A DNA stretch of 57,567 bases from Pseudomonas phage vB_Pae-SS2019XI. Positions 1 to 50,663 of the stretch are shown here, in pieces. Every line of letters begins with the position of its first letter. Position 1 is the stretch's first letter. The DNA lies in the sequence record MN536026.1, one strand, 5' to 3'. Under the pieces are notes generated by a model, which saw only the letters and a list, made by a program, of their open reading frames with translations, made no database searches and was not told where the DNA came from. Made by a program: the position numbers and the translations under genes.

Positions 1-576
1 ATGGCTGGCAGGCCAGATAGCAAGGTCATGGACGAGGGGACAAAAGAGATCCTCTTTGAGGGAGCGAGCATTTCGCAGCTCGGACGGCTCTTCGGCATGG
101 ACAACCGGACGGTGACCAGCAAGCTCGCCACCAACGTACAACCAGTGGGGCGCCGCGCTGGCCACTCAATCTATGCAGTCAAGGATGCGGCGCCGTACCT
201 CGTTGAGCAGAACCTCGACCTCAGCGACCTGGAGAAGATCGCCGCGTATGTGCAGCGGCTGGACCCTTCCCGCTTGCCGCGTCAGCTGACCAAAGATTTC
301 TGGCAAGCGATGTTGAACAAGCAGAAGTTCGAAGAACAGGCCGGTGATCTATGGCGGACCGCGAAGGTCGTTGAAGTCTATGCGGACTTGGTGAAAGCCA
401 TCCGTACACCCCTGATCCTGGCGGGTGACACCGTCAACAACCAGACCGAGTTGAGCCCGCGGCAGCGGCAGATCCTCAACGAGGTCATCGATGACCTATT
501 GGAGATGCTGCATGAGGCAGTCGTTAAACAGTTCGGCGAAGATGAACAGCCGCCGGAGGCGGACGACGACCTATAG
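1..576 (+). CDS. terminase small subunit (possibly 5' complete at window edge)
   Basis: First gene of the head operon. HTH-like segment ISQLGRLFGMDNRTVTSKL. Its 3' end overlaps the large-terminase gene as in lambda Nu1/A. Acidic C-terminus ...PPEADDDL. Confidence 0.55.
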   Translation: MAGRPDSKVMDEGTKEILFEGASISQLGRLFGMDNRTVTSKLATNVQPVGRRAGHSIYAVKDAAPYLVEQNLDLSDLEKIAAYVQRLDPSRLPRQLTKDFWQAMLNKQKFEEQAGDLWRTAKVVEVYADLVKAIRTPLILAGDTVNNQTELSPRQRQILNEVIDDLLEMLHEAVVKQFGEDEQPPEADDDL

Positions 577-2650
577 ACGGGTCGAGGACATCGCTCTTGG
601 CGTCGCAGCCATGTTCAATCCGCCCGAGCGCCTGTCCGTCGCTGAAGCGGCTGCGAAGTACCGCTACCTGAATAACCCCGGCTCGTTCCGAGGTTACTGG
701 CGCAACGATAAAGCTCCATACCTAGTTGAACCGATGAACGAGCTTGACTCTCGGTTCTTCGAAGGGGTGATTTTCGTAGGGCCTGCGCAGTCAGGGAAAA
801 CTGACGCCTTGATTTTGAACTGGGTATTGCACTCAGCGAAGTGCGACCCAATGGACATGATCCTCTATAACCCGTCGACAGCTGCGGCGCGGGACTTCTC
901 GATGCGGCGTATCGACCGCTTGCACCGGCATAGCCCGGTAATGGAAGAGCTGCTGCTGAAGAAGCGGGACGCCGATAATACGTTCGACAAGCACTACGTC
1001 AACGGCATGATGCTGACGATGTCGTGGCCCTCCGTGGTCGAGTTTGCAGGCAAGCCCGTCCCACGCGTGGGGTTAACAGACTTCGACCGGATGGACATGG
1101 ACATCGAAGGTGATGGTAATCCGTATGATCTGGCAGCGAAGCGAACGACCACGTACGGGAGTTACCGCATGGCGCTGGCGGAGTCATCGCCGTCGAAGCC
1201 TCTACTGAATCCGCGGTGGATCCGCACCAGCCCTCATGAAGCGCCTCCCGCTGATGGAATACTCGCTCTTTACAACCGTGGGGACCGGAGACGTTGGTAT
1301 TGGCCGTGCCCACACTGCAACGGCTACTTCGAGGGCGCCTTCGAGCTACTTGAGTGGGACGGGAAAAATCGTCAGGGCCAGAAGCTAGACCCAATTAGCG
1401 CGTCAGAATCGGTGTTCATGCGTTGCTCCCACTGCGGGCATCCGATTCGCCCGGACTGGCGCCACGAGATGCAGCAGTGGGGTATGTGGCTGAAAGAAGG
1501 CGAAGGGATCGACGCGAAGGGTAGGCGCTTCGGGCAACCCCGGCGAACGAAGATCGCCAGTTTCTGGTTAAACGGAGTCGCCGCGGCGTTCACCAACTGG
1601 GCGGAACTGGTGCGTCTCTGCTTAACGGCGGAGGAGGAGTACGCGAGTACAGGGAGCGAGGAGGCGCTGAAGAAGTTCTACAACACCGATTTGGGTGTCC
1701 CGTACATGCCGAAGGCTGTTGATTCAGAACGTCTCCCTGAACATCTGCATGCTCGCGCCGAAGAGCTGGGCGAGAAGGTTGTCCCGCTCGGTACGCGCTT
1801 CCTAGTTGCCAACGTGGACGTGCAGAAAAACATGTTTGTGGTCCAGGTTCACGGTATTGCTCCTGGGAGCCCCTTCGACATGTGCCTGGTCGACCGCTTC
1901 CAAATCCGGAAGTCGAAGCGCCTGGACGATGCTGGGGACCATCTCTGGGTGAAGCCTGCCACGTATTTGGACGACTGGGACCTGTTGATCGAGGACGTTA
2001 TGGACCGGAGTTACCCTCTTGCTGATGGCTCCGGTCGCCGGATGGCGATCAAGTTGACTACCTGCGACTCAGGCGGCTACTCGAAGGACAAGGGAGAGTC
2101 TGTCACGTCAATGGCCTATGACTTCTATCGCAGGCTGAAGCGCGAAAACCGCCACGGCCGGTTCCACTTGGTCAAGGGTGACCCCAGCCCCGGAGTCCCT
2201 CGGGCTCGGATATCGTTCCCGGACGCGCCGAAGAAGGACCGCCATTCGGCTGCTCGCGGCGATGTCCCTGTGCTCCTTCTGAATTCCAATGTTCTCAAGG
2301 ACGCGCTGCACGCCCGTCTGGATTGCATCACGCCAGGGCATGGGATGTACCGTTTCCCGGATTGGCTCCCGGACTGGTGGTATCAGGAGATGTGCGCGGA
2401 GGACCGAACAGCGAAAGGTTGGTTGAAGCGGCCGCATACCAAGAACGAAGCGTGGGACCTCTCGTACTACTGCATCGGAGTCTGCGTCTCTTCGTTACTC
2501 CTTGTTGAGAAAATGGACTGGCAAAAACCACCAGCGTGGGCCGATGAGTGGGACAGGAACTCTCTAGTGAGTGCGCCGGAAGAGGCCCCTCGCTTTGCTC
2601 CGCAAAAAGAGACTTACGACTTCGGCAAGTTCGCGCAAGCCATGGCTTAG
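512..2650 (+). CDS. terminase large subunit, lambda gpA-like
   Basis: Walker A motif VGPAQSGKT; about 700 aa; followed by W-portal-protease-D-E gene order. Start ambiguous: ATG at 491, 512, 542 or 611. The 512 ATG has GGAG 7 nt upstream and overlaps terS like lambda Nu1/A. Confidence 0.85.
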   Translation: MRQSLNSSAKMNSRRRRTTTYRRVEDIALGVAAMFNPPERLSVAEAAAKYRYLNNPGSFRGYWRNDKAPYLVEPMNELDSRFFEGVIFVGPAQSGKTDALILNWVLHSAKCDPMDMILYNPSTAAARDFSMRRIDRLHRHSPVMEELLLKKRDADNTFDKHYVNGMMLTMSWPSVVEFAGKPVPRVGLTDFDRMDMDIEGDGNPYDLAAKRTTTYGSYRMALAESSPSKPLLNPRWIRTSPHEAPPADGILALYNRGDRRRWYWPCPHCNGYFEGAFELLEWDGKNRQGQKLDPISASESVFMRCSHCGHPIRPDWRHEMQQWGMWLKEGEGIDAKGRRFGQPRRTKIASFWLNGVAAAFTNWAELVRLCLTAEEEYASTGSEEALKKFYNTDLGVPYMPKAVDSERLPEHLHARAEELGEKVVPLGTRFLVANVDVQKNMFVVQVHGIAPGSPFDMCLVDRFQIRKSKRLDDAGDHLWVKPATYLDDWDLLIEDVMDRSYPLADGSGRRMAIKLTTCDSGGYSKDKGESVTSMAYDFYRRLKRENRHGRFHLVKGDPSPGVPRARISFPDAPKKDRHSAARGDVPVLLLNSNVLKDALHARLDCITPGHGMYRFPDWLPDWWYQEMCAEDRTAKGWLKRPHTKNEAWDLSYYCIGVCVSSLLLVEKMDWQKPPAWADEWDRNSLVSAPEEAPRFAPQKETYDFGKFAQAMA

Positions 2651-2742
2651 TTTTGTCCATTAAATCAACTGTGAGTTGTATAATCGACAAAATGTTGTAA
2701 AGTTCGCTGCATGGAGAAATCCTCTCACCCGAGGCGCAGCAA

Positions 2743-2973
2743 ATGTCGTGTGGAACCGAACCAACCCTGCAAGACCTGGAAGAGGCCCGTCGGGCCTACC
2801 AGGCGCTCATCCAAGGCAACAAGCCTCGCGTGATCGTTGACCAGAATGGTGAGCGGGTCGAGTTCACTGCTGCAAACGCAGCGCGCCTTTATCTGTACAT
2901 ACAGGAGTTGGAGCGGAAGCTCTGCCCCGCTGGCGTGCGGCGCCCGAATGGACCGATGAGGTTCGTTTTCTGA
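2743..2973 (+). CDS. head-tail joining protein, gpW-like
   Basis: 76 aa, position between terminase and portal, GAGG 8 nt upstream. Residues AARLYLYIQELERKL resemble the W family. Confidence 0.6.
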   Translation: MSCGTEPTLQDLEEARRAYQALIQGNKPRVIVDQNGERVEFTAANAARLYLYIQELERKLCPAGVRRPNGPMRFVF

Positions 2974-4619
2974 TGGGCAGCATCCAGCAGTCGAGTCTAC
3001 TGCTCGACGCGGCACCACCTTCCCACCGAGCAATTGGCGGAGGTTTGGAGGGGGCTGATCGAACCTCTCGCGAGACCATGCTTTGGTATCCGCCTGTGCG
3101 CTCTCCGGACCAAGCGATCAATGGCGGTAAACCGCTTGCAGACGCTCGCGGGCGCGACATTGTCCAGAACGACGGGTATGCCTCCGGTGCAGTCGCGCTC
3201 AATCAAGACAACATCGTTGGCGCACAGTACCGGCTGAATGCCCAGCCGAACTACCGTGCCCTCGGCGTGAGCGAGGGGTGGGCTGAAGACTTCCAAGAGG
3301 TCGTCGAGGCGCGCTTCAACGTACTCGCCGATTCACAGGATTGCTGGCTGGACGCATCTCGCCGCAACACGCTGACCGGGATGGTGCGCCTGGCCGTCGC
3401 GAGTTTCGTAATGACGGGCGAAGACCTGGCTTCTGCGGAGTGGATCAGGGAAGCGCGTAGGCCATGTCGCACCGCCGTGCAGCTTCTTTCTCCGGATCGC
3501 CTGTGTAACCCCGACGGCCGCTCGGACGACAAGTATCTGCGCCGGGGCGTGGCGATCAGTGAGCGAGGTCAACACAGGGGGTACTGGATCCGGAACGGAT
3601 ACCCCAACGACCCCTGGAATGACTCGTACACCTGGAGCTACATCCCTGCGGAGAAACCCTGGGGGCGCAAGCAGATGTTGCACATCGTCGAGCAGCGGCT
3701 GCCGGACCAAACCAGGGGCGTGGCCGACATGGTCGCTGTGCTTAAGCAGATGCGGATGACGAAGCGCTTCCAGGACGTGACGCTTCAACAGGCCGTCGTC
3801 GCAGCTACGTACGCAGCAGCCGTTGAGTCGGAGCTGCCGCCGAACATGGTCTTCGAACAACTCGGCGGCGGTTCTCTCGATTTCGGGCCTATGGCGGGAT
3901 ACCTGAACTCGTACATGGGAGCGCTCAGCTCCTACCTGGATGAGTCGAAAAGCATCCAGGTGGATGGAGTCAAGATGCCGCATCTGTTCCCCGGCACCAA
4001 GCTGAAGATCCAGAGCTTGGCGCAACCGGGGGGTATCGGCGATGGGTTCGAGCAGTCGCTGCTTCGCCACATTGCCGCCTGCTTGGGGCTCTCCTACGAG
4101 CAGTTCACTCGTGACTACACGAAGACGAACTACAGCTCGGCCAGGGCAAGCATGACCGAGACCTGGAAGTTCATGCAGTCCAGGAAGAAGGCGGTCGCTG
4201 ACCGATTCGCCACCTTCGTTTACCTGCTCTGGCTCGAAGAGGAAATCAACGCCGGGAACATCCCGCTGCCACGCGGGAAAAAGGCGTCCTGGTTCTACGA
4301 GCCCCTGGTGAAAGACGCCTTGGGCGCTTGCAGCTGGATCGGCGCCAGCCGCGGGCAGATCGACGAGCTGAAAGAGACACAAGCGGCACTTCTCCGCATC
4401 AAGTCGGGGCTTTCTACATACGAGATCGAGGCCGCCAAACTCGGAATGGACTGGCGTGATCTGTTCGCGCAGCGCGCTCGCGAGGAACGCCTGGCCGCTA
4501 AGTACAAGCTGGTGTTCTCGATGAACGCGCAGCAGAGCGACACGAACGAGGCTCAGCGCACCTTGGCTGATGACCCGGATAACACGAAATCGAACGACGA
4601 AGAGGACGAGGCAGCATGA
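2973..4619 (+). CDS. portal protein, lambda gpB-like
   Basis: 548 aa; conserved blocks (QNDGYASGAVALNQDNIVG; QSLLRHIAACLGLSYEQFTRDY...SSARAS) match the lambda B family; start overlaps W stop (TGATG). Confidence 0.9.
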   Translation: MGSIQQSSLLLDAAPPSHRAIGGGLEGADRTSRETMLWYPPVRSPDQAINGGKPLADARGRDIVQNDGYASGAVALNQDNIVGAQYRLNAQPNYRALGVSEGWAEDFQEVVEARFNVLADSQDCWLDASRRNTLTGMVRLAVASFVMTGEDLASAEWIREARRPCRTAVQLLSPDRLCNPDGRSDDKYLRRGVAISERGQHRGYWIRNGYPNDPWNDSYTWSYIPAEKPWGRKQMLHIVEQRLPDQTRGVADMVAVLKQMRMTKRFQDVTLQQAVVAATYAAAVESELPPNMVFEQLGGGSLDFGPMAGYLNSYMGALSSYLDESKSIQVDGVKMPHLFPGTKLKIQSLAQPGGIGDGFEQSLLRHIAACLGLSYEQFTRDYTKTNYSSARASMTETWKFMQSRKKAVADRFATFVYLLWLEEEINAGNIPLPRGKKASWFYEPLVKDALGACSWIGASRGQIDELKETQAALLRIKSGLSTYEIEAAKLGMDWRDLFAQRAREERLAAKYKLVFSMNAQQSDTNEAQRTLADDPDNTKSNDEEDEAA

Positions 4620-5902: not shown

Positions 5903-5914
5903 CAGGAGAAGACC

Positions 5915-7415: not shown

Positions 7416-7808
7416 ATGCCGAAGCGCATCCCCCTCAGCACCATCGTCGTGTATCGCGACGGTAAACGCGTCGTGCCGGAAATCGGCAAGCCGTTCGACT
7501 TCACCTCGGAAGAAGTGGCGGATGTCAACGCCCTGGAGAAGAAGCTGAAGGACCAGGGCAACCCGCAGTTGCTCTTCCGCAAGGTGATCAACGAAGACCC
7601 GGAAACCCTGGCCGCCGCGAACACTGCAGAGCAGAACCGCAGTGGTAGCGCACCCGCTGAGGGCGCCGACTACGACAGCATGACCGTGCCTCAGCTGAAG
7701 GAACTGGCCGAGGCACGCGAGATCGACCTGGGCGACGCGACCAAGAAAGTCGACATCATCGCCAAGCTCAAGGGTGCCACCGCTGGTGAAGGGGACGAGG
7801 ACCTGTAA
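7416..7808 (+). CDS. gpFI-like DNA-packaging accessory protein with SAP/HeH-like motif
   Basis: 130 aa, acidic, after the capsid gene as lambda FI. C-terminal MTVPQLKELAEAREIDLGDATKKVDIIAKLK resembles a SAP/Rho-N DNA-binding motif. Ends GEGDEDL. Confidence 0.4.
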   Translation: MPKRIPLSTIVVYRDGKRVVPEIGKPFDFTSEEVADVNALEKKLKDQGNPQLLFRKVINEDPETLAAANTAEQNRSGSAPAEGADYDSMTVPQLKELAEAREIDLGDATKKVDIIAKLKGATAGEGDEDL

Positions 7809-28698: not shown

Positions 28699-28959
28699 CT
28701 AGTCGGAACCGGGGCCGAGAGACCCGGCATCCCAGATGTTCTTTGCGTCTGCCATGAGCCGGTGGTAGCCGCTTGGCGTGAACTGGTAGCGCTTGGGTGG
28801 CGCTTCGAGCAGCTCGCGCACGATGTTCCTCAGCCCTGGCCGGCGCCCTTCGTCGACCCAACTTAAATCTGCTAAATCAAAGGTTTGTTGTATCTGAGGG
28901 CGAAGAACGCCCTCCGGGGTGATCAGTGCATCCCGGCTCATGCGGATCTCTTCACTCAT
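28699..28959 (-). CDS. hypothetical protein
   Basis: 86 aa from ATG 28959, which overlaps upstream stop (ATGA). Contains the conserved 23-bp DNA motif in frame. Confidence 0.35.
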   Translation of the reverse strand: MSEEIRMSRDALITPEGVLRPQIQQTFDLADLSWVDEGRRPGLRNIVRELLEAPPKRYQFTPSGYHRLMADAKNIWDAGSLGPGSD

Positions 28960-29789
28960 AGGTCGCTCTCCTCGTAGCGCATCCAGGCGTCGTTCGCGCC
29001 GGTACGCCACATGCCGTAGTTCTGTTTGATGATGACGGCCGGCGCATTCCAGTGCTGGCAGGCCTTGTCGAGATCCGCCTCACTGGCAGTCCACTGATCG
29101 CTGTTGCTGTTGGCCGTGGTCTTGATCGGGCGTTGCGGCATCAGGCGTAGGAGACCGCCGCTGAGGTCGGACACAGCCTCTTGCAAGTCGATCTGCCGGA
29201 CGCTCAACTGCAGGCAGTCGGAGCCGCAGATCAGCGAGGTGAGCGGCATTGCGTGATAGACGAGCATCGCGCCGTCCGGCGTTAGGATGCCCTCGACCGC
29301 GGCGCCCAGCATCCAGGAGCGGTCGCCGTTGAAACGAAGGATCGAGGCCAGGTGCTCCAGCTCAGGCGTGAGTCTGTCGATAGCCGCGCCTACAAGCCCC
29401 TTGCGGTCTGTAGTCCAGGGCCAGGGTTTGCCATCGGCAGTGATGGCCGTGATAACTCGCCGGCCGGCGATCTCCGGCTCAACCCAGCAGGAGAACATCG
29501 ACACCGCCGTGCGGCTGTAGGGGACGGCGCTCATGACTTCACCTGGCCACGGGGCCTTGTTCTCGATGAAGCTGATCTGTGGGCTGGCGAGGAAGGTCTG
29601 CAGGTTCATCCGCAGCTTTACCTTGCCGTCTTCCTCTCGCCCCTGAAGCTGTGCGCGGCACATCGGGCAGTTGAACAGGCGCTGGTCATCGGGTGCGTTA
29701 CCGCAGATCTGGTACTTGCAGTAGGGGCAGGGGATGCGCACCTCGCGAGGCCACTGCGGAAACGCGAACAGTTCGAGTTTCGGGCTCAC
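28956..29789 (-). CDS. Zn-finger protein (CPYC...CPMC), acidic C-terminus ...YEESDL
   Basis: 277 aa if started at GTG 29789, which overlaps the TGA of the small upstream ORF (GTGA) and has GGGGG upstream. The table start 29855 is a GTG without RBS. Confidence 0.4.
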   Translation of the reverse strand: MSPKLELFAFPQWPREVRIPCPYCKYQICGNAPDDQRLFNCPMCRAQLQGREEDGKVKLRMNLQTFLASPQISFIENKAPWPGEVMSAVPYSRTAVSMFSCWVEPEIAGRRVITAITADGKPWPWTTDRKGLVGAAIDRLTPELEHLASILRFNGDRSWMLGAAVEGILTPDGAMLVYHAMPLTSLICGSDCLQLSVRQIDLQEAVSDLSGGLLRLMPQRPIKTTANSNSDQWTASEADLDKACQHWNAPAVIIKQNYGMWRTGANDAWMRYEESDL

Positions 29790-32809: not shown

Positions 32810-33733
32810 TTAGGCGGCGGCGAGGAGGGTTTCCAGGACCCTGTGGCCGGCGAGCGGCGGCACCGCGTTGCCTGCCATGTGGGTGCAAAGCTTCAGGTTG
32901 GTGGGCCTGAGCGTGTCCTTGCTGAACGACATGGCTTGCAGGGTTTCGTCGTCGGTGAGCATTCGCATGTGGTCACCATCGACAACAGCCCATCGAGCAC
33001 GGGTCGTGATGGTCCCTATCGGGCGCTCAATGCTTCGGCCGGTGAGACCGGAGCCGGATCCGTAGTAGGGCATCACGAACCTGTCACCGAAGTCCTTCCG
33101 CCCATTGCGTACCCGGCGCAGCGTAGCGTCGGCGCGACCTGGCTTCTCGATCAACGTCCAGTTGCCGGAGTCGAAGTCGATGAAAGACGCAGCCGGCACA
33201 TGGTCGTACTTTGGCAACTTGAGCTGGAGAGGGGTCTTGCTGCGAGTGCAGACCAGGAAGAGCCTCACCCTGTTCTGTGGGACGCCGAGGTCTGCGCAAT
33301 CAACGACATGGGGCGAAACAGCATACCCGAGGGCCTTCACGGCGTACTCCCAAGCAGGGTACAGGGACCAGGTGAGGAACTCCGGCACGTTCTCGACTAC
33401 CGCGCCGTCTGGTTTGTGATATTCCAGTGCGTCGATTACAGCCCAGGCTGTGCTGCGGGCGGCGTCGTGCTCCGGATTCCCTTCCGGCCTACCTCGCGCC
33501 TTGGTGAAGCCGGTACAACACGGCGACGCGAGGAGTAGGTTGTGCCAAGGGACCTTGGACCAGTTTGCCTGCTGCAGATCCTGGCAGACGTGGACCGTCT
33601 CGGGGTGGTTCGCTGCGTGCCAGTGGACGGCTGTGGGCCAGTGGTTGGCGGCCCACACCACATTCACTCCAGCAGCACGCGCCCCGGTGGTCCAGCCGCC
33701 CATGCCAGCGAAGAGGTCGACTGCAGTATCCAT
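32810..33733 (-). CDS. DNA cytosine-5 methyltransferase (orphan)
   Basis: 307 aa; motif I DLFAGMGG, PC motif LLASPCCTGFT, ENV motif VVENVPEF; no adjacent restriction endonuclease. Confidence 0.8.
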   Translation of the reverse strand: MDTAVDLFAGMGGWTTGARAAGVNVVWAANHWPTAVHWHAANHPETVHVCQDLQQANWSKVPWHNLLLASPCCTGFTKARGRPEGNPEHDAARSTAWAVIDALEYHKPDGAVVENVPEFLTWSLYPAWEYAVKALGYAVSPHVVDCADLGVPQNRVRLFLVCTRSKTPLQLKLPKYDHVPAASFIDFDSGNWTLIEKPGRADATLRRVRNGRKDFGDRFVMPYYGSGSGLTGRSIERPIGTITTRARWAVVDGDHMRMLTDDETLQAMSFSKDTLRPTNLKLCTHMAGNAVPPLAGHRVLETLLAAA

Positions 33734-33747: not shown

Positions 33748-34278
33748 TTAAAGATCGTCGTACTCGGCCGAGAGGCGGATGTACTCAGCCTCGTCGATCT
33801 CCATGAGCGTCTGGGCTTCATCGAAATCAGGTCCACTCGGGTGACCTTTGCCCGTGCCGGGTCCGGTGCGGAACACACACTCAGACTCGGGGTGGTGCCA
33901 GTACCGCACGGAGCCCTTGAGGAACGCGCTCTTGTCGACGGTCAGCGTCTGCTTCTCGGCCTCGATCTGGGCCTTGGTGCGGCGTGTACGCACCTCGCTT
34001 TCGTCGATGCGCCACACACGGACCCCGGCCTTCTTGTAGATCTCGTCCAGTTCAACGTCGCGTGCGATTAGCGGGACGTTCACCTTCTTGCCCAGGTCGA
34101 GCAACGGGCGGACGTCCTTCTTGGTGGCATCGGCGAGGAAGAAGCTATCGCCTACCCTCATGGAGACCAGGGTCTTGACCTTCGGGTCGTTCATGTCCAC
34201 GCCGCGTTTACGTCGGGTTCCGGGTTGCTCCACGTCTTGCTCCACGATGATCACTGCTGTGTTGATGTCGAAGGTCAT
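33748..34278 (-). CDS. hypothetical protein, acidic C-terminus ...AEYDDL
   Basis: 176 aa; ATG overlaps rdgC stop (ATGA). Confidence 0.45.
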   Translation of the reverse strand: MTFDINTAVIIVEQDVEQPGTRRKRGVDMNDPKVKTLVSMRVGDSFFLADATKKDVRPLLDLGKKVNVPLIARDVELDEIYKKAGVRVWRIDESEVRTRRTKAQIEAEKQTLTVDKSAFLKGSVRYWHHPESECVFRTGPGTGKGHPSGPDFDEAQTLMEIDEAEYIRLSAEYDDL

Positions 34279-35381
34279 AGGTCGTCATCCTCGGTTTGCC
34301 GGCGGGCCTGCTCGAACTCGTCATCGTCGCCGTCCTCGCCGTCGATCACGCCCTTCAGACGCTCCTTCGAGATCTCGGGGGAGCGATAGACTTCGACGCC
34401 GTTGATGGAAATGGATCCGCCGTTCTTGATCGGAGCGATAACAGCGGCGACGTCGTTCGCCAGCTTGCTCGGCAGGTCTTCCCCCAACTGGTCAGCCAGA
34501 GTGCCGACCAAGCGCTGGATCGTCCCGACCAGGATCGCAAGGGACGCATCCAGGGTAGTGGCCGGGTCTCCATCCGAGTCCTTGCCGATCTCCCCGAGAA
34601 CCAGGTCGTCGAATTTGATGCTTTTGAAAATGAGCTGGTCGCTGACCTTGAAGTACATCTGGTCCTCACCCTCCCAACTGAACGCAACCAGCAGCTCGGC
34701 GACGCGGAAGGCGTTGTTGAGGTAGGACTGAGGCTCCTCGTCGTCCAGGTTGACCCCCTTGAACGTGACCACGTCCTTTTCGCTGTTGACCAGCTTGGCT
34801 GCGTCCAGGCGCTTGAGGTTGTCGTACGCGTTGGAGCGCATGATCTCGGTGAGCCATGCAGAGGGCTCGACCTTGAAGGTGAGGGGGCGAACAGACAGTG
34901 AGTCCATGGCGCGCCGCAGGGCGTCCAGGGCGTCCTCCGCCTTCTTGGCGCTGCTGCTTTCGACGACCAGGAGGTTGCCTATCACCAGCATGTTGATGAC
35001 GCTGTGCTTGATGAATGCCCGCGGCAGAAGCTCGGCTTCGACCTCGTCGCGGATCTGCGCCAGCTCCTTGCGGTAGCACTTCCGCTGCTCGCGACTCTCG
35101 ATCTTCTCGACTCTCGCGGCGACGTGTTCGCGGATGGTGGCGCCGGTCAGTTGGCGCTCATGGACATACAGGGTGAAGAGGTTGGCGCCGGACGGTGCAC
35201 TCCAGACCAGCTCGTCGCTCAACCGCGGCGCCGGCAGGTCGAAGCCGAGTGCCCGCCACTGGCTGCCTGTGGGCTCGCGTGCCGGCAGTTCGGCCAGCAG
35301 CGCACCGAGGCCTTCCCAGTCGTTGAGCGTGGCGACATGGTCGGGGTTGGTGACTCGGTAGAACATCATGTTCTTGAACAT
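34275..35381 (-). CDS. rdgC: recombination-associated protein RdgC-like
   Basis: N-terminal MFKNMMFYRV and the LLPRAF...SSAKKAEDALDALRRAMDSL block parallel E. coli RdgC. An extra acidic tail ends TEDDDL. Confidence 0.8.
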   Translation of the reverse strand: MFKNMMFYRVTNPDHVATLNDWEGLGALLAELPAREPTGSQWRALGFDLPAPRLSDELVWSAPSGANLFTLYVHERQLTGATIREHVAARVEKIESREQRKCYRKELAQIRDEVEAELLPRAFIKHSVINMLVIGNLLVVESSSAKKAEDALDALRRAMDSLSVRPLTFKVEPSAWLTEIMRSNAYDNLKRLDAAKLVNSEKDVVTFKGVNLDDEEPQSYLNNAFRVAELLVAFSWEGEDQMYFKVSDQLIFKSIKFDDLVLGEIGKDSDGDPATTLDASLAILVGTIQRLVGTLADQLGEDLPSKLANDVAAVIAPIKNGGSISINGVEVYRSPEISKERLKGVIDGEDGDDDEFEQARRQTEDDDL

Positions 35382-35651: not shown

Positions 35652-36005
35652 TTAAAAATCGAGTTCGTTCAGGGCGCCGCCTCGTTGACCCTCCAGAATG
35701 GCGGCTTTGATCTTCACCTCGCCGTGCACAGCGGCTAGATGGCGCAGGGCGTACCCGCCCATAACGCATAGGGAGTGTGGGGCGTGTTCTCGCGGGTCGA
35801 TCTCGTCGCCGCGCTCGTCCAGGAGGCGGTAGACGGCCCTCAAACCGCTGAGGTACTCAGTGACGGCGACTCCGGTGTTGCCGTGCATCTGAGTGAGGGC
35901 GAACAGGAACCGGTCCCCGTCTAGGGGGAACCAGAACGTCTCGAACACTTCTGCGGGGGCGGGGCCTTCCGCCGAGGCAACTTGGATCGTCGGCATGGCG
36001 GTCAC
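35652..36005 (-). CDS. hypothetical protein
   Basis: 117 aa, starts at the stop of the ParB-like gene. Confidence 0.4.
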   Translation of the reverse strand: MTAMPTIQVASAEGPAPAEVFETFWFPLDGDRFLFALTQMHGNTGVAVTEYLSGLRAVYRLLDERGDEIDPREHAPHSLCVMGGYALRHLAAVHGEVKIKAAILEGQRGGALNELDF

Positions 36006-37018
36006 AGATCGTCGTCGTCGGTCTTGGCGGCCTCGGCAGCTTTGGCCGCTTTTGCCTCGGCGCGTTTACGTTGCTCCTCCTGCACGGCTTCAACGTTCCC
36101 GTGGGCTGCGAGCAGCGCCATCAACGGTACGACGTCGATGGTGACCTGCCCTCCGTCGATGCGTCCTTCACGGAAGTCGTTGACGACGGCCTCCGCTTCG
36201 GGGCTGAGGCTGCGGCGGAACTTGGCGACATTGCCGACCAGGTCGTTCACGACGGGGCGGGGTAGGGGGCTCCCCTTCATCGTGCCGGCCGTAACTTTCT
36301 TGCTGCCCTGCTTGACTGCCTTGGCGTACTCCTTCTCGATGACTTCAACGGCGTCGCTGCCGTGCTCCTTGGCGATCTTGACCGCCTCGGTGACGGCGAT
36401 CTTGCCGGTCTTGACGGCTTCCTGAACGCCGTGGTCCGCATTCGCTAAGGCGAGGTGGCGGTCAACATGGTCGCGGGGCTTGTTGAACGCTTTGGCGATC
36501 TCCGTCGCGTTCAGGCCGAACTCGACCTGAGCCCGCTTGTAGAGTCGGGCGGTCTCCACTTCCGTGAGCGCGAGGTGCTCGTTGCCTGTGCCGATGCGCA
36601 CGAGCTTTTGCAGATCGTTGCCCTGGAACGGGATGCATTCGATGAACTCCAGGTCGTCAACTTTTTCGAGCAGCTTCGCCTTGTCCGCCGCAGCCATGTC
36701 CTCCCGGATCAGCGACCGGAGCTGCTCTTGCTTGGCCGGGATGACGCGGCCGAAGGCCTCGTGGCGGCGGTGCCCTTGGACGATCTCAATGGCCCCAGTC
36801 TTCGGGTTGACCTCGACCTCCAAGGGGGCCACTTGACCTCCACCCAGGAGGAACTTCTCCAGGGCGTTGATGCTGTGCCAGTAGCGCTCGTCCTTGTCGC
36901 GCTCGTTGTTGCCTGGGACGACCACCAGGTCGGAGTAGCGCACCCGGTAGAGGTCTCGCGACTTGATTGCTTTGTCGCGGCGGAGGCTCTTGAACGAATA
37001 TGCTTTTTCTTGAGTCAT
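36002..37018 (-). CDS. ParB-like nuclease domain protein
   Basis: 338 aa from ATG 37018; GHRRHEA motif (ParB/Srx GxRRxxA); ends TDDDDL. Confidence 0.6.
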   Translation of the reverse strand: MTQEKAYSFKSLRRDKAIKSRDLYRVRYSDLVVVPGNNERDKDERYWHSINALEKFLLGGGQVAPLEVEVNPKTGAIEIVQGHRRHEAFGRVIPAKQEQLRSLIREDMAAADKAKLLEKVDDLEFIECIPFQGNDLQKLVRIGTGNEHLALTEVETARLYKRAQVEFGLNATEIAKAFNKPRDHVDRHLALANADHGVQEAVKTGKIAVTEAVKIAKEHGSDAVEVIEKEYAKAVKQGSKKVTAGTMKGSPLPRPVVNDLVGNVAKFRRSLSPEAEAVVNDFREGRIDGGQVTIDVVPLMALLAAHGNVEAVQEEQRKRAEAKAAKAAEAAKTDDDDL

Positions 37019-37068
37019 GGTTGCTTTCTCAATGGTTTGTTGTTTCTGCAGACGCACCTATCCCGTGG

Positions 37069-44466: not shown

Positions 44467-44853
44467 TCACCCCTGCTGAGTACTGGTTATCCATACAGTA
44501 TATTCAGGACCGCATGCGTCGGCCTGTCAAGCTCCAGGGCGCAGGGATGCCGGCCGCCGTATGTGCAATGCATATAGGCGTGTTTCGTCGTGCCAGGTCG
44601 CCGCGTCGCCGTGTTTCGGCGTGCCTGTTTAACTAGAACGTTTATTTAAACCGTATATCTATCACTACCGTTCGTCGGTTTATCGGCCCGTTTACAGGCG
44701 TCGATTAACTGCCCGCCTAAGTGACCGGGTCCCTCCAGGGCCTTTTTTCGGCTGGGCGGGGGCGCTGAGCCGCGATCACGCATTTTGTCGATTTTCCGCA
44801 ACGCCACCTTTGGATTTCGGCGCGTACCCCGTCAAAAGGGCTGGACCCGGAAA

Positions 44854-45129: not shown

Positions 45130-45230
45130 TCATTTATGTACGGGGAATGGGTCAGTTTTCGATGACTTTTATGCTGCGTCATACACAGAGTCGTAAACGG
45201 CACGATAAACCGATCTTCTGCCCAGCATTT

Positions 45231-45266
45231 AGCGAGCAAAAATAAACCCGCCATGTAGGCGGGTTT
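45231..45266 (-). terminator. rho-independent terminator downstream of primase-helicase gene
   Basis: AAACCCGCC-atgta-GGCGGGTTT 9-bp perfect stem (45244-45266), followed on the minus strand by AUUUUUG. Confidence 0.6.
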
Positions 45267-45284
45267 CGGGGGTGAAAGGGGAGG

Positions 45285-47828
45285 CTACAAGTCGTCGTCC
45301 TCATCATCGTCTTGCTCGCCTTCCATGTACTTGCGGATCTTCTCGGTATCCGGGATCAAATCACCTTCGGCGTTTCTCCAGGTGAACTTCTCGGGGTTTC
45401 GCGAGTAGAAGCGATACCGCTCCTGCCCGATCCGGACGCGCCCGATTGGAATGAACCCGTGGTTCTCCAGGATGTAGTTGAGGGTCTTTGGTGCCGGCAG
45501 CTCGAAATCGTAGTCGTCGTTCATCGTTAGGCTTTCGAGCCGGGTGATGTTCAATAGGTCATCCGAGATGTCAGGGAATTCCTTCGACTCGATTATTTCG
45601 CGGATGCCTCGTAGTTCCTTCGGCTGGGACACCCGCACCATGTAGCGGAATGCCGGGGTAATGGGTGCATTGCCATCCGGGTGGAAATCGGGACTCTGCT
45701 CTAGCTGCAGCATCCACTGCCGAAGTGCCGGTGCTGACTCGTCCAACGCGGCGTACAGATCGTTGTAGTAGTCCGGGTTCTCCTCCATGAACTCCGCGAG
45801 CTTTTCGCGCTGTTGCCATTGTGAGAAGAGGACGCAGTAGCGCCGCTCGTTGTCTTGCAGTGGCAGGGCCTTGCGGTAGTTACTGAAGAGTAGGTAGGAG
45901 GTCGTGTTCTCGACGTTGTAAGGGTCGCGGCCCTTCGCATGGATCTCGATCACCCGGTTCGTCACCAGCGGCTTGAACCTGTTCAGCACGTCGTAGCGGT
46001 TGTGGCCGACCATGTGGACTTCTTCGAAAGCGAGCACGCATTGACCCTGGGCCCAGGCGGTGAAGCTGGACTCCAGGATGTGGGCGTTGGCCATCGTCAC
46101 GTTGCCGATCCCCATGACGGCGCGGAGCAGGAAGGCGAAGAACGATTTACCGTCACCTGGGACGCCTTGCAGCAGGATCGCCCAGTTGACCCTTTTACCT
46201 GGGTTCTGCACGACGTACGACAGCCAGTCGAGCAGGATGCGCTGCTCCTTCGGGTCCTCCAACATGTGGGCAATGTGGGCTCGCACCCGCTTTATGTTGA
46301 TCTTGTCGATGGGCCGGATGTTCTTCGGCTTCGGCGGGATGTGGTGCTCGGGGTAGGTGTTGGCCCATTGAGTGCCGTTGTAGATGAAGACCCCGTCACG
46401 ACCAGGTGCGTACATGCGTCCGTGCACAGTCGGGATTTTGTAGACGTTCAGCGCGAGGTGGCAGGCGGTACTGACTGGCGCCGACTTCCCATCCAGAACG
46501 TCCTTTTTGGTCATTGCGTGCCGATCGTTGATCGCGTTGAAGCCTTGGGCTGAGACCGCATGCTTGTGGACGGTGTGGTAGAACCGGTCCTCGCTGGCGT
46601 CATAAACCCAGTCGCGGCACCACCGCGGTAGCTCTTTGGTATTGATCTCGTAGGCCAGAGATTTCTTCACTTCCGCCAGCGGGACCTTGTTGCCCGTCAA
46701 AGCCACCAGTCGGTCTCTTGCGATCTCGGCGAGGCTAGCTCGGGAGAGGTGGTCGATTTCGGCCCGCCGGGTGATCTTCGCTGCCTCGTTCCATTCAGCT
46801 CGGTCTTTCGCCATCGCGAACTGGTTGCGGAGTTCGACGGCGGTTTCAATCGCCTTCGTCTCCGCAGCCTCCTTCGCGAGTTGCAGGATCAGTCGGGCAG
46901 TAACTGGGGCGCGGCCCTTGTCGCTGATATCGAAGGTGTCCCACTTCCGGTTCAGCGCATCGGCGTCGTAGTTGTCTGCGGACTCCGACCATTCGTGCCA
47001 CATCTCTCGGCCGATGTCCTCTCCATCGTACTGGTGGTAGAGCGCCATCCCGATCTGGAGCCAGGTGTCGTAGTCTTCTGCACCTGGAACGAGCATTAGG
47101 CGCTGCTGCAACTCGGCCTGCGACAGATTCACAGGCTGGGCGTCGGCCGCAAACGGATCGTCCTTGTCTATCGCTGCAGAGCCGGGTTGCCTGTTGATGC
47201 GAGAGCCTCGGACCAGCGTCCAGCCCCGTTTCTCTGCTTCTGATTCGAATAAACGAACAAGCCCTCCAAGCTTTTCCGGCTCAATCAGCGGGAGGTCGTC
47301 AGCTGACGTGTTGAGCGGGCTCTCCTCACTGGTCCAGCGGTACGGCCGGTGCGTTTCGGGGTGCTTGTGGAAGGCTACGAATTGCTGGCCATCGCCGAGA
47401 ATCTCGATTCGGCAGCGCTCTTGCCACTCGTTGAGGTAAGTCTTCGAGGTGATTTTTCGGAAGGGCTCGTCTGTGCGGTAGAGCAAAAGGCGCTTGGGCG
47501 GCAACCCAATACGGACGGGGGCTCGTCCTAAATTCTCATGGCACCAGTCTTCAAGCAGATCCGCCAACTCGTCATCGAGCACGTCGATGTCTACGGCTGG
47601 GGTATGCGCGGCGAGGATCCCCACGCCGTGGTTCTCCAGACCTGACTCCATCCAACGCGCCAACTGAGCTTGGCTCGCACGGGTTTTCTGCCAGTCGTCG
47701 AACCCCGGTGCCTTTTTGCCAGGGGCAATAGGGACGATGTTGTACCCGTGGTCGATCAGTGTCTTGCCGTGCTGCGCCAGGTAGCCGCCCTTTATCACCT
47801 GGGTGCGGTCTTTCGTGGCTCGGTCCAT
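45285..47828 (-). CDS. primase-helicase (prim-pol N-terminal domain + D5_N + P4-type SF3 helicase)
   Basis: About 847 aa. N-terminal GYNIVPIAPGKKAPGFDDWQ fits a prim-pol domain. Walker A GVPGDGKSFF. ATG 47828 has GAGGTGG upstream (the table's GTG 47834 is the alternative). Ends DDDEDDDL. Confidence 0.8.
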   Translation of the reverse strand: MDRATKDRTQVIKGGYLAQHGKTLIDHGYNIVPIAPGKKAPGFDDWQKTRASQAQLARWMESGLENHGVGILAAHTPAVDIDVLDDELADLLEDWCHENLGRAPVRIGLPPKRLLLYRTDEPFRKITSKTYLNEWQERCRIEILGDGQQFVAFHKHPETHRPYRWTSEESPLNTSADDLPLIEPEKLGGLVRLFESEAEKRGWTLVRGSRINRQPGSAAIDKDDPFAADAQPVNLSQAELQQRLMLVPGAEDYDTWLQIGMALYHQYDGEDIGREMWHEWSESADNYDADALNRKWDTFDISDKGRAPVTARLILQLAKEAAETKAIETAVELRNQFAMAKDRAEWNEAAKITRRAEIDHLSRASLAEIARDRLVALTGNKVPLAEVKKSLAYEINTKELPRWCRDWVYDASEDRFYHTVHKHAVSAQGFNAINDRHAMTKKDVLDGKSAPVSTACHLALNVYKIPTVHGRMYAPGRDGVFIYNGTQWANTYPEHHIPPKPKNIRPIDKINIKRVRAHIAHMLEDPKEQRILLDWLSYVVQNPGKRVNWAILLQGVPGDGKSFFAFLLRAVMGIGNVTMANAHILESSFTAWAQGQCVLAFEEVHMVGHNRYDVLNRFKPLVTNRVIEIHAKGRDPYNVENTTSYLLFSNYRKALPLQDNERRYCVLFSQWQQREKLAEFMEENPDYYNDLYAALDESAPALRQWMLQLEQSPDFHPDGNAPITPAFRYMVRVSQPKELRGIREIIESKEFPDISDDLLNITRLESLTMNDDYDFELPAPKTLNYILENHGFIPIGRVRIGQERYRFYSRNPEKFTWRNAEGDLIPDTEKIRKYMEGEQDDDEDDDL

Positions 47829-47836
47829 GCCCACCT

Positions 47837-48100
47837 CTACGCTTCAGCGGACTGAGGGGTTTCTGTCCATGCACTGCCGACCAAGGCCTTGAGCGCCAAA
47901 TCGACCTTCAGGCTGAGGCGGCCCCTGGACATAGCGACGTGCAGGTGATTGGGGTGGCATCCGACGGCTTTACTCAGCACAGGTAACGAGCCGCTGGCGT
48001 TGTGGAAGAGGGCTGCTCTACGCAGGCGATAGATCAGGAGCATTCTGCGTCGCTCTTCGTCGCTGAGCGCGGGATCTGTCACCCAGGAAGGGAGATTCAT
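47837..48100 (-). CDS. Cro/YdaS-like HTH regulator
   Basis: 87 aa from ATG 48100 (GAGG 9 nt upstream). HTH-like LSKAVGCHPNHLHVAMSRGRLS. Divergent from the replication operon. Confidence 0.45.
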   Translation of the reverse strand: MNLPSWVTDPALSDEERRRMLLIYRLRRAALFHNASGSLPVLSKAVGCHPNHLHVAMSRGRLSLKVDLALKALVGSAWTETPQSAEA

Positions 48101-48181
48101 AGTTACAACCTCTGGTAGAGTGGACAATCTCAAGTTGATAGCCTACAGTCGGCCCTGTTAGAGATCAATCGATAATGAGTG

Positions 48182-48210
48182 TTGACCAAAACAACTGTTT
48201 GTTGTTTTAT
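48182..48210 (+). promoter_or_regulatory. candidate replication-operon promoter with perfect palindromic operator
   Basis: TTGACC (48182-48187)-N17-TTTTAT. The spacer is AAAACAAC-tgttt-GTTGTTTT, a perfect 8-bp inverted repeat at 48188-48208. Confidence 0.45.
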
Positions 48211-48276
48211 CAATAGGCGATTGAGCATAACCCGCCAACACCTTTCGGCGGAAATTCAACCCCCTGGAGACATGCA

Positions 48277-48687
48277 ATGAGTAGCGAAATGACCCTCAAC
48301 CAATTCGGCGCTGAGCTGATTCGTCACCTGGCCCGCCTGGCCAACGCCGTGGAAGGTATCGAGTCGAAAGTCGGGGCTGCCGGCGCCGGCTCGGCCGGTA
48401 GCACCAGCGCCTCCACCACTACTGGCGGCAGCAAGGGCTCTTCCGGTCGCAGCACCAAGCAGAAGGAAGAACCGTCCAAGCCGAAGCACGACAGAGCCGA
48501 GGTCGACAAGGCCCTGATCGCGCTGAAGGACGCCCATGGCAAGGACGAGGCCGTCGCGGTCTACAAGGGTTTCGGTTACGCGAAGATGGCCGAGATCGCC
48601 GAGAAAGATTTCGACGCTGTCTACGAAAAAGCGGTTGCTCGCCTGGAAGAGCTGAACAGCGACGGCGGCGAAGGCGAAGATCTGTAG
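48277..48687 (+). CDS. hypothetical protein with Gly/Ser/Ala-rich linker, ends GEGEDL
   Basis: 136 aa, GGAG upstream, first gene of the rightward replication operon. Confidence 0.4.
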   Translation: MSSEMTLNQFGAELIRHLARLANAVEGIESKVGAAGAGSAGSTSASTTTGGSKGSSGRSTKQKEEPSKPKHDRAEVDKALIALKDAHGKDEAVAVYKGFGYAKMAEIAEKDFDAVYEKAVARLEELNSDGGEGEDL

Positions 48688-48689
48688 CC

Positions 48690-50009
48690 ATGGCTGACCA
48701 CGGCTTCGATCTCGCTGCCGTGCAGCGGAAGCTGGGAGGGCATAGCGTATTTGCCCCCTCGGCTTCCGCCATGTGGTTGCTGTGCTCAGGCTCGCTTATC
48801 CCAAATCTTCTTGCCGAAGATGAGGTGGGGGAGGACGCAGCCTACGGCACAGTGGCTCATGGGGTCGCCGAGAGGTGGCTGAAGACCGGCATCAAGCCGG
48901 TAGACCTTGTCGGGACCGTTGAACTGGTTGCCGAACACACCCAGACATTCGAGATCGAGATCGACCATTCGATGCTCGATTACGTGCAGCAGTACGTCGA
49001 TTGGTGCACGGCGCTGCCGGGGGACCACTTTGTCGAGCAGCGCGTCGACTTCTCTCGCTTGACGCCGATCCCCGATCAAGGTGGGACCGCCGACCACATC
49101 GCCTGTCTTCCCGGCCTCCTGGTCATTACCGACCTCAAAATGGGGAAGGGCGTCCAAGTTTTTGCCAAACGGAATACTCAGGCGCTTCTGTATGCGCTCG
49201 GCTCGTTCTACCGCTGGGACTGGGAGTACGGGTTCCAGCGCGTGATTATCCGAATCGCGCAGCCCCGTCTCGATCACTTCGACGAGTGGGAAGTAAGCCG
49301 CGATGAGCTGTTGCAGTTTGCCGAATACGCTAAAGAGCGAGCCCACGCCGCGTGGGCGCCGAATGCGCCGCGGACTCCCGGCGAGAAGCAGTGCCAGTGG
49401 TGTCGAGTGAAAGCTTCGTGCACAGCCTTCGCCGCTCACATGGAGTCGCTATTGGCAGGCGTGTTTGACGACCTGGACGACGCGTGCAGCGAAGAGCAGG
49501 TGCACCAGTTCATCGAGCGTTTGGAAGACGAGTTCGATGAATTCACGTTGGCTCCTGCGCCTCTGCAAACCCTGTCGACAAGCCAGAAAGCCAAGATCTA
49601 CCGCTGGAGAAAGGCGGTAGAGAACTGGTTCAAAAGCCTCGAAGACGACCTTGAAAAGACCCTCCAGGCCGGGAATCCGGTCCCTGGTTACAAGGTCGTG
49701 GAGGGGCGGTCCAACCGATTCTTTAGAGATCCGTCCTCGGTCCCCGAGACGCTGGAGATGTTAACTGGCGTCCCTGCGGAAAAGTTCATTGCGACCTCGG
49801 TGCGGACCCCCGCACAGGTCGAAGAGATCCTGAAAAAAGAGGGCGGCTATCGGGCTGCCCAACTCCCCGAATTACTGGAGCGCGAGGTCCTCGGTGTAAC
49901 GAAGCCTCGCGGTAAGCCGGTAATGGCCCCAGCGCACGACAAGCGCGCTGAGCTAACCCTGACGGTCGATGACGTTTTCGATGATCTCGAAGGCGAAGAC
50001 GACCTTTGA
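48690..50009 (+). CDS. DUF2800-type PD-(D/E)XK (Cas4-like) nuclease
   Basis: 439 aa. Central ITDLKMGKG...QALLYA block. Synteny with the DUF2815/PolA module. Ends GEDDL. Confidence 0.5.
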   Translation: MADHGFDLAAVQRKLGGHSVFAPSASAMWLLCSGSLIPNLLAEDEVGEDAAYGTVAHGVAERWLKTGIKPVDLVGTVELVAEHTQTFEIEIDHSMLDYVQQYVDWCTALPGDHFVEQRVDFSRLTPIPDQGGTADHIACLPGLLVITDLKMGKGVQVFAKRNTQALLYALGSFYRWDWEYGFQRVIIRIAQPRLDHFDEWEVSRDELLQFAEYAKERAHAAWAPNAPRTPGEKQCQWCRVKASCTAFAAHMESLLAGVFDDLDDACSEEQVHQFIERLEDEFDEFTLAPAPLQTLSTSQKAKIYRWRKAVENWFKSLEDDLEKTLQAGNPVPGYKVVEGRSNRFFRDPSSVPETLEMLTGVPAEKFIATSVRTPAQVEEILKKEGGYRAAQLPELLEREVLGVTKPRGKPVMAPAHDKRAELTLTVDDVFDDLEGEDDL

Positions 50010-50045
50010 CCCGTAAATCGAGTAAATCTGAAATAGGTGAATCGC

Positions 50046-50663
50046 ATGGCTCGTGAGATCGTCAAAAAGGTAAAGAATGCCGTTCTGTACTCCGATGGTT
50101 GCATCCGTATCGATAACGTTCGGGCGTCGTATCCGCACTTGGATAAAGCTTGGGCGAAAAACGAGAGTGACCGGCCGAAGTTCAGCATCACCGGCCTGGC
50201 ACCCAAGGAAACGCACGAAGAAGCCAAGAAGCTCCTGGTGGAAGAGATCAATAAGCTGCTGACCTCCAGCAAGATCGGCAAGCTGGCTTCCGAACACAAA
50301 TTCGTTCGGAACGGCGACGACTCTGGCAAAGAAGAAGCGGAAGGCCACTGGATTATCAAGGCTTCGGAGAACCCGGATCGCCGCCCCTCCTGCAGGACGC
50401 CTCGCGGGACTGTGATGACCCCGGAAGAAACCGCCAAGAAGATCTACCCTGGCTGCTGGGTGAACATCCTTGTGCGCCCTTGGGCCCAGAACAATCAACA
50501 TGGCAAGAAAATCAACGCTAACCTGATCGCGGTCCAGTTCGTTCGCGACGGCGAACGGTTCGGTGAAGGCGCTATCGATGATGAGGATGTCTGGGACGAA
50601 CTCGACGACGCCGCGGATGATGGATACGACTTCGGGGACGAGGGCGGCGACGACGACCTCTGA
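50046..50663 (+). CDS. DUF2815-type phage ssDNA-binding protein
   Basis: About 205 aa from ATG 50046 (GGTGA upstream; GTG 50037 is the table start). N-terminal VKNAVLYSDGCIRI...YPHL. Acidic tail GGDDDL. Confidence 0.5.
   Translation: MAREIVKKVKNAVLYSDGCIRIDNVRASYPHLDKAWAKNESDRPKFSITGLAPKETHEEAKKLLVEEINKLLTSSKIGKLASEHKFVRNGDDSGKEEAEGHWIIKASENPDRRPSCRTPRGTVMTPEETAKKIYPGCWVNILVRPWAQNNQHGKKINANLIAVQFVRDGERFGEGAIDDEDVWDELDDAADDGYDFGDEGGDDDL

Follow-up and report, generated by a model that had tools for sequence, protein, structure and literature searches.

Why should ten otherwise dissimilar proteins of one phage end in the same few residues? The question is raised by a 57,567-nucleotide stretch of Pseudomonas phage vB_Pae-SS2019XI (MN536026.1), called the window below, in which a first-pass annotation made from the sequence alone had listed ten open reading frames (ORFs) whose products close with an acidic run followed by Asp-Leu; the ten translations were found to match that list exactly. 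The motif is real, lies far above chance, is selected at the protein level, occurs throughout a group of related phages, and changes in concert within genomes irrespective of the host species. We infer from sequence comparison that it serves in docking and that its receptor is encoded by the phage: the tail would be a short linear docking motif shared by DNA-transaction and packaging proteins and addressed to one or two phage receptors, a reading to which we assign a probability of about 0.6.

An acidic tail on ten predicted proteins

The tailed proteins of the window are given here with coordinates, strand, and C-terminus; domains were assigned using Pfam and PHROGs.

1..576, + strand: terminase small subunit (TerS; DUF1441 / phrog_141), C-terminus PPEADDDL.
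7416..7808, + strand: DUF7443 protein at the lambda-FI gene position, 3' of the major capsid gene, with a SAP-like helix-loop-helix, C-terminus GEGDEDL.
28956..29789, - strand: early protein with no family match, C-terminus RYEESDL, the weakest member.
33748..34278, - strand: early protein (phrog_7200), C-terminus SAEYDDL.
34275..35381, - strand: RdgC-like protein whose RdgC domain (PF04381, E = 4.5e-49) spans residues 2-301 of 368; the remaining 67 residues form an acidic extension with C-terminus TEDDDL.
36002..37057, - strand: ParB-like helix-turn-helix protein, start at 37018 or 37057, C-terminus AAKTDDDDL.
45285..47828, - strand: primase-helicase with PrimPol, PriCT_2 and DUF5906 (D5-like) domains, C-terminus EQDDDEDDDL.
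48277..48687, + strand: small conserved replication-module protein (phrog_7721), C-terminus GGEGEDL.
48690..50009, + strand: DUF2800 PD-(D/E)XK nuclease, C-terminus VFDDLEGEDDL.
50046..50663, + strand: SSB (a protein that binds single-stranded DNA) of the DUF2815 / Enc34 type, T7 gp2.5-like, OB core 1-175 and disordered acidic tail 176-205 ending GGDDDL.

Using a set of 79 genes obtained by a codon-usage gene call and an expectation based on amino-acid composition, DL endings were counted in 10 genes against 0.44 expected (binomial P = 2.7e-11), which bears out the enrichment proposed by the first-pass annotation; [DE][DE]DL endings occurred in 7 genes against 0.007 expected. None of the 587 stop-to-stop non-gene ORFs of at least 50 codons that served as a control ended in DL. 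The ten tails are written with five leucine codons, both aspartate codons, and all three stop codons, and no pair among the 45 possible is identical in nucleotide sequence over the final four codons (12 nucleotides). The 3' context varies as well, from an ATGA overlap through a gap of 36 nucleotides (nuclease) or 90 nucleotides (SSB) to the absence of any downstream gene (primase). Since codons, stops, and 3' context all differ, the signal lies in the protein and not in the DNA. The rare leucine codon CTA (6% of leucine codons genome-wide) closes three of the ten tails, two of them within a CTATGA overlap with the next ATG (34275-34280 and 28956-28961); translational coupling there constrains the codon of the tip and leaves the residue unchanged.

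The tails were also confirmed to lie beyond the conserved domains, as the RdgC-like protein illustrates. In an AlphaFold2 model of the SSB built on a 92-sequence alignment, the OB core was predicted with high confidence (predicted local distance difference test, pLDDT, >90), and residues 176-205 were disordered (pLDDT 48-70); the family assignment of this protein is supported by PF10991 (E = 9e-22) and phrog_112 (E = 2e-44). Searches of PDB and NCBIfam gave no identity for the small protein at 48277-48687, the protein at the FI position, or the early proteins at 33748-34278 and 28956-29789.

The name FI-like, originally given to 7416-7808, holds for the gene position: the window follows the lambda-type order Nu1-A-W-B-C-D-E-FI, an order likewise annotated in Xanthomonas phage FoX4, Salmonella phage Chi, Cronobacter phage JC01, and Aeromonas phage BUCT551. 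By sequence the protein belongs to the DUF7443 family and shows only a weak SAP-like motif besides; its AlphaFold2 model is too poor to be searched by fold (mean pLDDT 67.5, predicted TM-score 0.35). It is called the FI-position protein here. The SAP-like helix-loop-helix occupies residues ~85-123, between the conserved N-terminal domain and the tail, where weak matches to Pfam SAP and to the SAP domain of THO1 were obtained; its presence suggests that a head-completion or packaging protein here binds DNA.

Many tails carry a second hydrophobic or aromatic residue 10-14 positions upstream of the C-terminus, as in the SSB (YDFGDEGGDDDL), the nuclease (VFDDLEGEDDL), RdgC (DEFEQARRQTEDDDL), and the SSB of phage Chi (AWDEDEDWEDEV), and a comparable arrangement is present in T7 gp4 (DWSNDTDF). 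Judged from these sequences, the motif may be bipartite.

A further ORF may belong to the set:

35652..35996, - strand: 114-residue protein between the RdgC and ParB-like genes, no family match, C-terminus ALNELDF.

It may represent a Phe-tipped variant of the tail, and its membership is uncertain.

Conservation and concerted change of the tip

Relatives of the window were found at the protein level only, among the Casjensviridae and their allies (FoX4, phiAxp-2, BcepNazgul, AH2, Chi, Sano, and others; primase identity 31-46%), and a megablast search of the replication module against 50,697 phage records returned no DNA-level match. Across this group the tail is kept on the gp2.5-like SSB, the PrimPol-helicase, the DUF2800 nuclease, the small replication-module protein, the SNF2 helicase, TerS, the FI-position protein, RdgC, and many small early proteins.

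Conservation of the terminal residue independently of the domains, a check put forward with the initial list, was observed in two families. Among 120 SSB homologues with identities down to 50%, 117 end in Leu (92 DL, 18 GL, 4 SL, 2 EL, 1 AL) and two more in DI, and the acidic linker varies freely; in the 92-sequence alignment the last residue is among the near-invariant columns. In DUF7443 the terminal Leu is invariant in 15 of 15 homologues, even in three whose SAP-like helix-loop-helix has been lost. An acidic tail with a hydrophobic tip was also present in 87 of the 150 nearest RdgC-family representatives in a library of 1.8 billion proteins, and was absent from classical RdgC of ~300 residues. 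A second type of RdgC tail (P0161-P0256) consists of an acidic run and two hydrophobic residues (EDLV, EDLI, EDLL) and occurs on just two proteins in loci L095 and L096; it may represent the system's variant in some other group of phages.

Comparison with other genomes and lineages gave the following sets.

Xanthomonas phage FoX4: ~11 tailed proteins ending -EL or -DL (primase, nuclease, SSB, SNF2 helicase, portal, FI-position protein, RdgC, 3'-5' exonuclease, and others).
Salmonella phage Chi: 9-10 tailed proteins ending -EV (primase, gp4, nuclease, SSB, TerS, gp18, gp42, RdgC, gp62).
Aeromonas phage BUCT551: 11 tailed proteins ending -[DE]I.
BcepNazgul: 5 tailed proteins ending -GL, the tails of primase, helicase, and FI-position protein being almost non-acidic.
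Metagenomic lineage L070: 3 tailed proteins ending -FD(D) (SSB, nuclease, TerS).
Achromobacter phage phiAxp-2: 9 proteins ending -EL and 3 ending -M.

To judge from these predicted C-termini, the same set of proteins is tailed in the relatives, with a tip that is lineage-specific and uniform within a genome. The orthologues bear this out protein by protein. TerS ends in DDDEV in Chi, DDEEI in BUCT551, DDDEI in JC01, and EDDEL in phiAxp-2, and the FI-position protein in GDGDL (FoX4), AEDEV (Chi), GDDI (JC01), NDDEI (BUCT551), and ASGL (BcepNazgul). The primase-helicase endings EDDEL, DEDEV, DDEEI, and GCGL each follow the tip of their own genome. Orthologues of 33748-34278 end in EEDDEL (FoX4, phiAxp-2) or G[ES][FYW]DEL (IMG/VR loci), and the small protein ends in EEDDV (Chi), NDDDI (BUCT551), or ADDDF (JC01) and often in M in L-type phages, a word-index search for this protein having returned 4 homologues only. 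The SSB of Enc34 ends in WDEDEV, as read from the cloning primer (PMC5686142). The residue preceding the tip is likewise lineage-specific: D in the window, E in Chi and BUCT551, and G in BcepNazgul. None of the six comparison genomes yielded an orthologue of 28956-29789. A PAPS-reductase-like protein is among the tailed proteins of Chi and BUCT551.

The concordance of tips within genomes was quantified in 80 IMG/VR loci around the SSB gene, which formed 39 clusters at 80% SSB identity. The last residue was identical in 173 of the 215 within-genome pairs of tailed proteins (0.80), compared with 0.54 +/- 0.025 when the genomes were permuted, and none of 5000 permutations reached the observed value. 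When the non-Leu tips were placed on the PolA tree, at least three L-to-I, two L-to-V, and one L-to-F separate switches were needed. G+C content was ruled out as the cause of tip choice, the I-type genomes having the highest values. Phages infecting one species can differ: in six shared proteins of Serratia marcescens phages, the tip is L in Smarc1 and V in Smarc5. Phages of Enterobacterales differ in the same manner, with L in MA12, V in Chi, and F or I in JC01.

The presence of the system was examined in 38 loci anchored on RdgC, in a scan built on a 12-sequence alignment subset. When RdgC is tailed, 5-9 tailed proteins lie within 20 kb, many of them small early ORFs without known function, compared with 0-2 when it is not; the untailed loci are mostly prophage-like contigs of ~35-52 kb, a few being longer, and several encode a bacterial SSB ending in DDDIPF. 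On this count a genome either has the tail system or lacks it. In phiAxp-2, seven consecutive early genes (L092, 35082-38933) end in -[DE][DE]EL, and three further loci (L099, L106, and L122) show similar runs of seven to nine adjoining small early genes, all with that ending; an entire block of uncharacterised early products is labelled in this way. The motif was not found on tail-fibre, tail-tube, or lysis proteins in any whole genome examined. Loci L044 and L053 encode, beside the gp2.5-like SSB, a second protein ending in DDDIPF or DDEVPF, the bacterial SSB tip; the two endings coexist and are distinct.

Within some genomes two tip classes can be distinguished. In JC01 and phiAxp-2, the small protein, the SSB, and the SNF2 helicase form one class, tipped with F or M, and TerS, RdgC, the FI-position protein, and the primase form the other, tipped with I or L; in many L-type genomes the SSB favours -DL and the other tailed proteins -EL. 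This pattern points to a pair of receptor sites or to a single, tolerant site that prefers two ligands.

Two genes of the window complete the picture of the client set:

53078..54787, + strand: SNF2-family helicase, tail-less in the window (ending RIHKKL), with tailed orthologues in many relatives.
2973..4619, + strand: portal of the lambda family, ending in an acidic run without a hydrophobic tip (NDEEDEAA), the full tail being present on the portals of FoX4 and several IMG/VR loci.

Membership in the tailed set thus appears, from the sequences compared, to be fluid between lineages.

What may read the tail

The concerted change of the tip in proteins of unrelated folds, independent of the host, argues that the reader is a phage protein co-evolving with its clients, and a conserved terminal hydrophobic residue preceded by a lineage-specific one is typical of a pocket that reads a side chain and a free carboxylate beside a basic surface. 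In the docking mechanism we favour, a flexible, usually acidic linker would end in one hydrophobic residue with its free carboxylate, and this tip would enter a hydrophobic pocket, with basic residues at its sides, on one or two phage receptors. All tailed proteins would in this manner be tethered at one place, the replisome or the replicating DNA, as T7 gp2.5 and gp4 are on the T7 DNA polymerase. The clients would comprise replication proteins (SSB, PrimPol-helicase, the small protein, and, in relatives, the SNF2 helicase), recombination proteins and nucleases (DUF2800, RdgC), the ParB-like protein, packaging proteins (TerS, the FI-position protein, and, in relatives, the portal), and several early proteins, amounting to at least 10 in the window and up to ~15 in relatives.

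A receptor may be sought among the proteins that are conserved but untailed in all genomes compared, namely the family A DNA polymerase (PolA), the terminase large subunit (TerL), the major capsid protein, and the protease. Two of them are of interest here:

50757..52805, + strand: family A DNA polymerase (PolA), untailed in all relatives.
512..2650, + strand: TerL of the lambda gpA type, start uncertain (491 or 512), untailed in all relatives.

PolA is the first receptor candidate for the SSB/helicase class of tips, and TerL or another untailed conserved protein is a candidate for the class of TerS, the FI-position protein, and RdgC. In lambda, TerS, FI, and the portal are the classical partners of the terminase.

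The closest precedent is found in T7, where two of 53 proteins have such an ending, gp2.5 (DEDGDF) and gp4 (SNDTDF). As in T7, the SSB of the window is of the gp2.5 / Enc34 OB-fold type, a disordered acidic tail with a single terminal hydrophobic residue is carried by the primase-helicase as well as the SSB, and a neighbouring gene encodes a family A polymerase. The analogy with T7 drawn in the first-pass annotation thus held for these two proteins, and the replisome part of the system (SSB, primase-helicase, and PolA) is, by this comparison, a direct analogue of the T7 arrangement. Beyond the replisome the two systems differ: 10 to 15 proteins are tailed here, including TerS, the FI-position protein, the portal of relatives, RdgC, the ParB-like protein, nucleases, and small early proteins; the tip is L, V, I, M, or F according to lineage, in contrast to the fixed F of T7; and the primase-helicase is of the PrimPol/D5 and not the DnaG/DnaB type.

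Several observations weigh against the docking reading, or at least against its simplest form. The acidic tails of T7 gp4 bind basic patches on gp5, of which the first lies at the thioredoxin-binding domain and the second at the front (PMC12593628). When the PolA family was aligned locally with T7 gp5 using hhalign, PolA residues 157-236 corresponded to T7 156-262 (probability 76%) and PolA residues 237-328 to T7 333-425 (probability <1%, kept only for the colinear junction). T7 residues 262-337 have no counterpart, so PolA lacks the thioredoxin-binding domain, which carries one of the two tail-binding patches. The AlphaFold2 model of the SSB did not dock the tail onto its own OB fold (pLDDT <50 at 203-205). 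In two scans for alignment columns co-varying with the tip, PolA, SSB, VRR-NUC, helicase, primase, nuclease, TerS, and TerL were covered, with the small protein added in the first. The tip columns, serving as a positive control, were recovered by the second. The leads obtained beyond these (PolA Y373, altered in six of six non-Leu clades; PolA E226; SSB I177; and numerous TerL and primase positions that are confounded) are weak and phylogenetically confounded. Neither the column scans nor the SSB model yielded a receptor. Tips are not fully uniform either, M being frequent on the small protein, F occurring on the primase of one clade, and two classes coexisting in JC01 and phiAxp-2; a single pocket is therefore too simple. 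Finally, many tailed early proteins are without known function, so a role other than recruitment is possible for them, and the binding experiments known for the group concern SSB-DNA binding only.

The common docking peptide for one hub proposed initially can thus be retained as a shared tag whose tips change in concert, and the two tip classes agree better with two specificities than with a single hub. Of the hubs named at that stage, PolA is weakened by the missing domain and the DUF2815 OB fold by the undocked tail.

The organisation envisaged has other parallels. In T4, the gp45 sliding clamp and its clients gp43, gp33, and gp55 present the same logic of many tails and one hub, unlike proteins sharing a short terminal motif for a single DNA-borne partner, and clamp-binding or PIP-type motifs follow it more generally. 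That hub couples replication to late transcription (PMC2988020, PMC7892883); the processes coupled here would instead be replication, recombination, and packaging, and the tail combines an acidic run with one hydrophobic residue and does not resemble the hydrophobic clamp-binding consensus. No clamp gene was found in the window by Pfam and PHROGs scans. A receptor that reads a short C-terminal peptide of unrelated proteins is also known from the EEVD-TPR interaction of Hsp70/Hsp90 and from the cargo-loading peptides of encapsulins, in which receptor and peptide co-vary by lineage. A scan of 20 window proteins detected neither a TPR nor a PDZ domain; neither TerS nor portal is cargo, and the resemblance is functional only.

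The alternative that survives best, although we consider it unlikely, is a cis-acting, autoinhibitory DNA mimic, in which each acidic tail folds onto the DNA-binding surface of its own protein, as in T7 gp2.5, T4 gp32, and bacterial SSB, and no common receptor exists. The tails are acidic and disordered, and most of the identifiable carriers bind DNA. In addition, the Enc34 DUF2815 SSB without its tail binds double-stranded as well as single-stranded DNA, and in the crystal its disordered acidic tail sits in the groove of a neighbouring molecule (PMC5686142). Such an effect is compatible with docking and may contribute to the function of the tail. It leaves unexplained, however, why the last two residues switch jointly in unrelated folds of one genome and why the primase, helicase, and FI-position protein of BcepNazgul keep -GL on nearly non-acidic tails, and the SSB model in which the tail is not self-docked also speaks against it.

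It is less probable still that the tails recruit phage proteins to a host hub, such as a protein that binds the SSB tip, the beta clamp, or RNA polymerase. Like the phage tails, the tip of bacterial SSB (DDDIPF) combines an acidic run, a hydrophobic end, and a free carboxylate in a docking peptide on a disordered linker, and organises many DNA-metabolism proteins through one element. Many phages exploit host hubs, phage Mu and the beta clamp being one example (PMC12867686). In the bacterial system, however, one SSB tail serves many pockets, and here many tails would presumably serve one or two. None of the 120 SSB homologues ends in PF, and the window SSB has a gp2.5-type and not a bacterial SSB fold. 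The beta-clamp motif (QL[SD]LF / QLxLxL) is absent from all ten tails, and the bacterial-type tip occurs as a separate entity in some relatives. The different tips of Smarc1 and Smarc5 on one host species, and the L, V, and F/I tips all found within Enterobacterales, make the host-factor hub named in the first-pass annotation improbable.

A turnover or handling tag, that is, a C-terminal degron, chaperone, or modification signal controlling early, middle, and late proteins jointly, appears more doubtful again. C-terminal tags commonly mark sets of proteins, and with carriers among early genes, replication genes, and TerS/FI alike, the set is a mixed one if a single replisome hub is assumed. 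Bacterial C-terminal degrons are, however, non-polar (the ssrA-type LAA), and acidic C-termini are stabilising; no ssrA-like non-polar tripeptide was found, all tails being acidic up to the penultimate residue. With a tip that is independent of the host, a phage protease would be needed, the prohead protease being the sole protease found, and T7 sets a precedent of docking for the SSB and primase-helicase.

A by-product at the DNA level (Shine-Dalgarno-like GAGGA/GACGAC, overlapping ATGA starts, or 3'-end gene conversion) or chance, for which one could cite the next start codon lying directly after four of the ten tailed genes and the CTA codon in the CTATGA overlap of two tails, was ruled out by the diversity of codons and contexts described above, by the binomial probability and the 587 control ORFs, and by the retention of the protein motif across genomes of differing gene order.

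Genomic setting and implications

The window combines a lambda-like head module (Nu1-type TerS of DUF1441, gpA-type TerL, and lambda-family portal) with a replication module comprising the PrimPol/PriCT_2/DUF5906 primase-helicase, the DUF2800 nuclease, the DUF2815 SSB, the family A polymerase, VRR-NUC, and the SNF2 helicase. Homologues of the SSB and the FI-position protein with 96-98% identity, for the SSB the closest ones, are found on Pseudomonas aeruginosa genome contigs 0.4-7 Mb in length. Three further genes are relevant to the setting:

56010-57044, - strand: tyrosine integrase (PF00589), by family match.
54852-55517, + strand: helix-turn-helix/Cro-like regulator.
32810-33733, - strand: C-5 cytosine DNA methyltransferase (PF00145) in the early region, adjoining tailed genes and itself tail-less (ending ETLLAAA).

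From its gene content and homologies, the window is most likely a temperate siphophage or prophage of P. aeruginosa related to the Casjensviridae (Chi, BcepNazgul, FoX4). Its temperate appearance contrasts with the many Casjensviridae described as lytic.

In the literature searched, no description of a multi-protein tail of this kind was found; the Enc34 paper remarks on the acidic tail of the SSB alone (PMC5686142). The class of mechanism is known, and what appears unusual from the sequences is its breadth, that of a proteome-wide, co-evolving C-terminal tag linking replication, recombination, and packaging. Acidic tails with a hydrophobic tip, a textbook device for keeping replisomes together (T7 gp2.5/gp4, bacterial SSB), have hitherto been described as one or two per system, and here the motif marks a tenth or more of the phage proteome. 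In its widest form, which we put forward tentatively and regard as possible rather than probable, the tail would be a phage-wide address tag by which one or two phage receptors gather 10 to 15 unrelated proteins into a single assembly on replicating DNA, from the replisome, recombination nucleases, RdgC, the ParB-like protein, and early proteins to TerS, the FI-type packaging chaperone, and sometimes the portal, coupling replication, recombination, and packaging, with tag and receptor co-evolving so rapidly that even phages sharing a host differ.

For the Casjensviridae-like phages and prophages, the tag offers a simple annotation signature of this network and a functional handle on dozens of small early proteins without known function. 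The lineage-specific tip (L, V, I, F, GL, or FD) constitutes a natural specificity experiment on the coupling of replication, recombination, and packaging, and Chi-like phages are tractable in Salmonella. If the wider proposal is true, divergence of tag and receptor may insulate co-infecting relatives from one another, which would represent a new kind of incompatibility between related phages.

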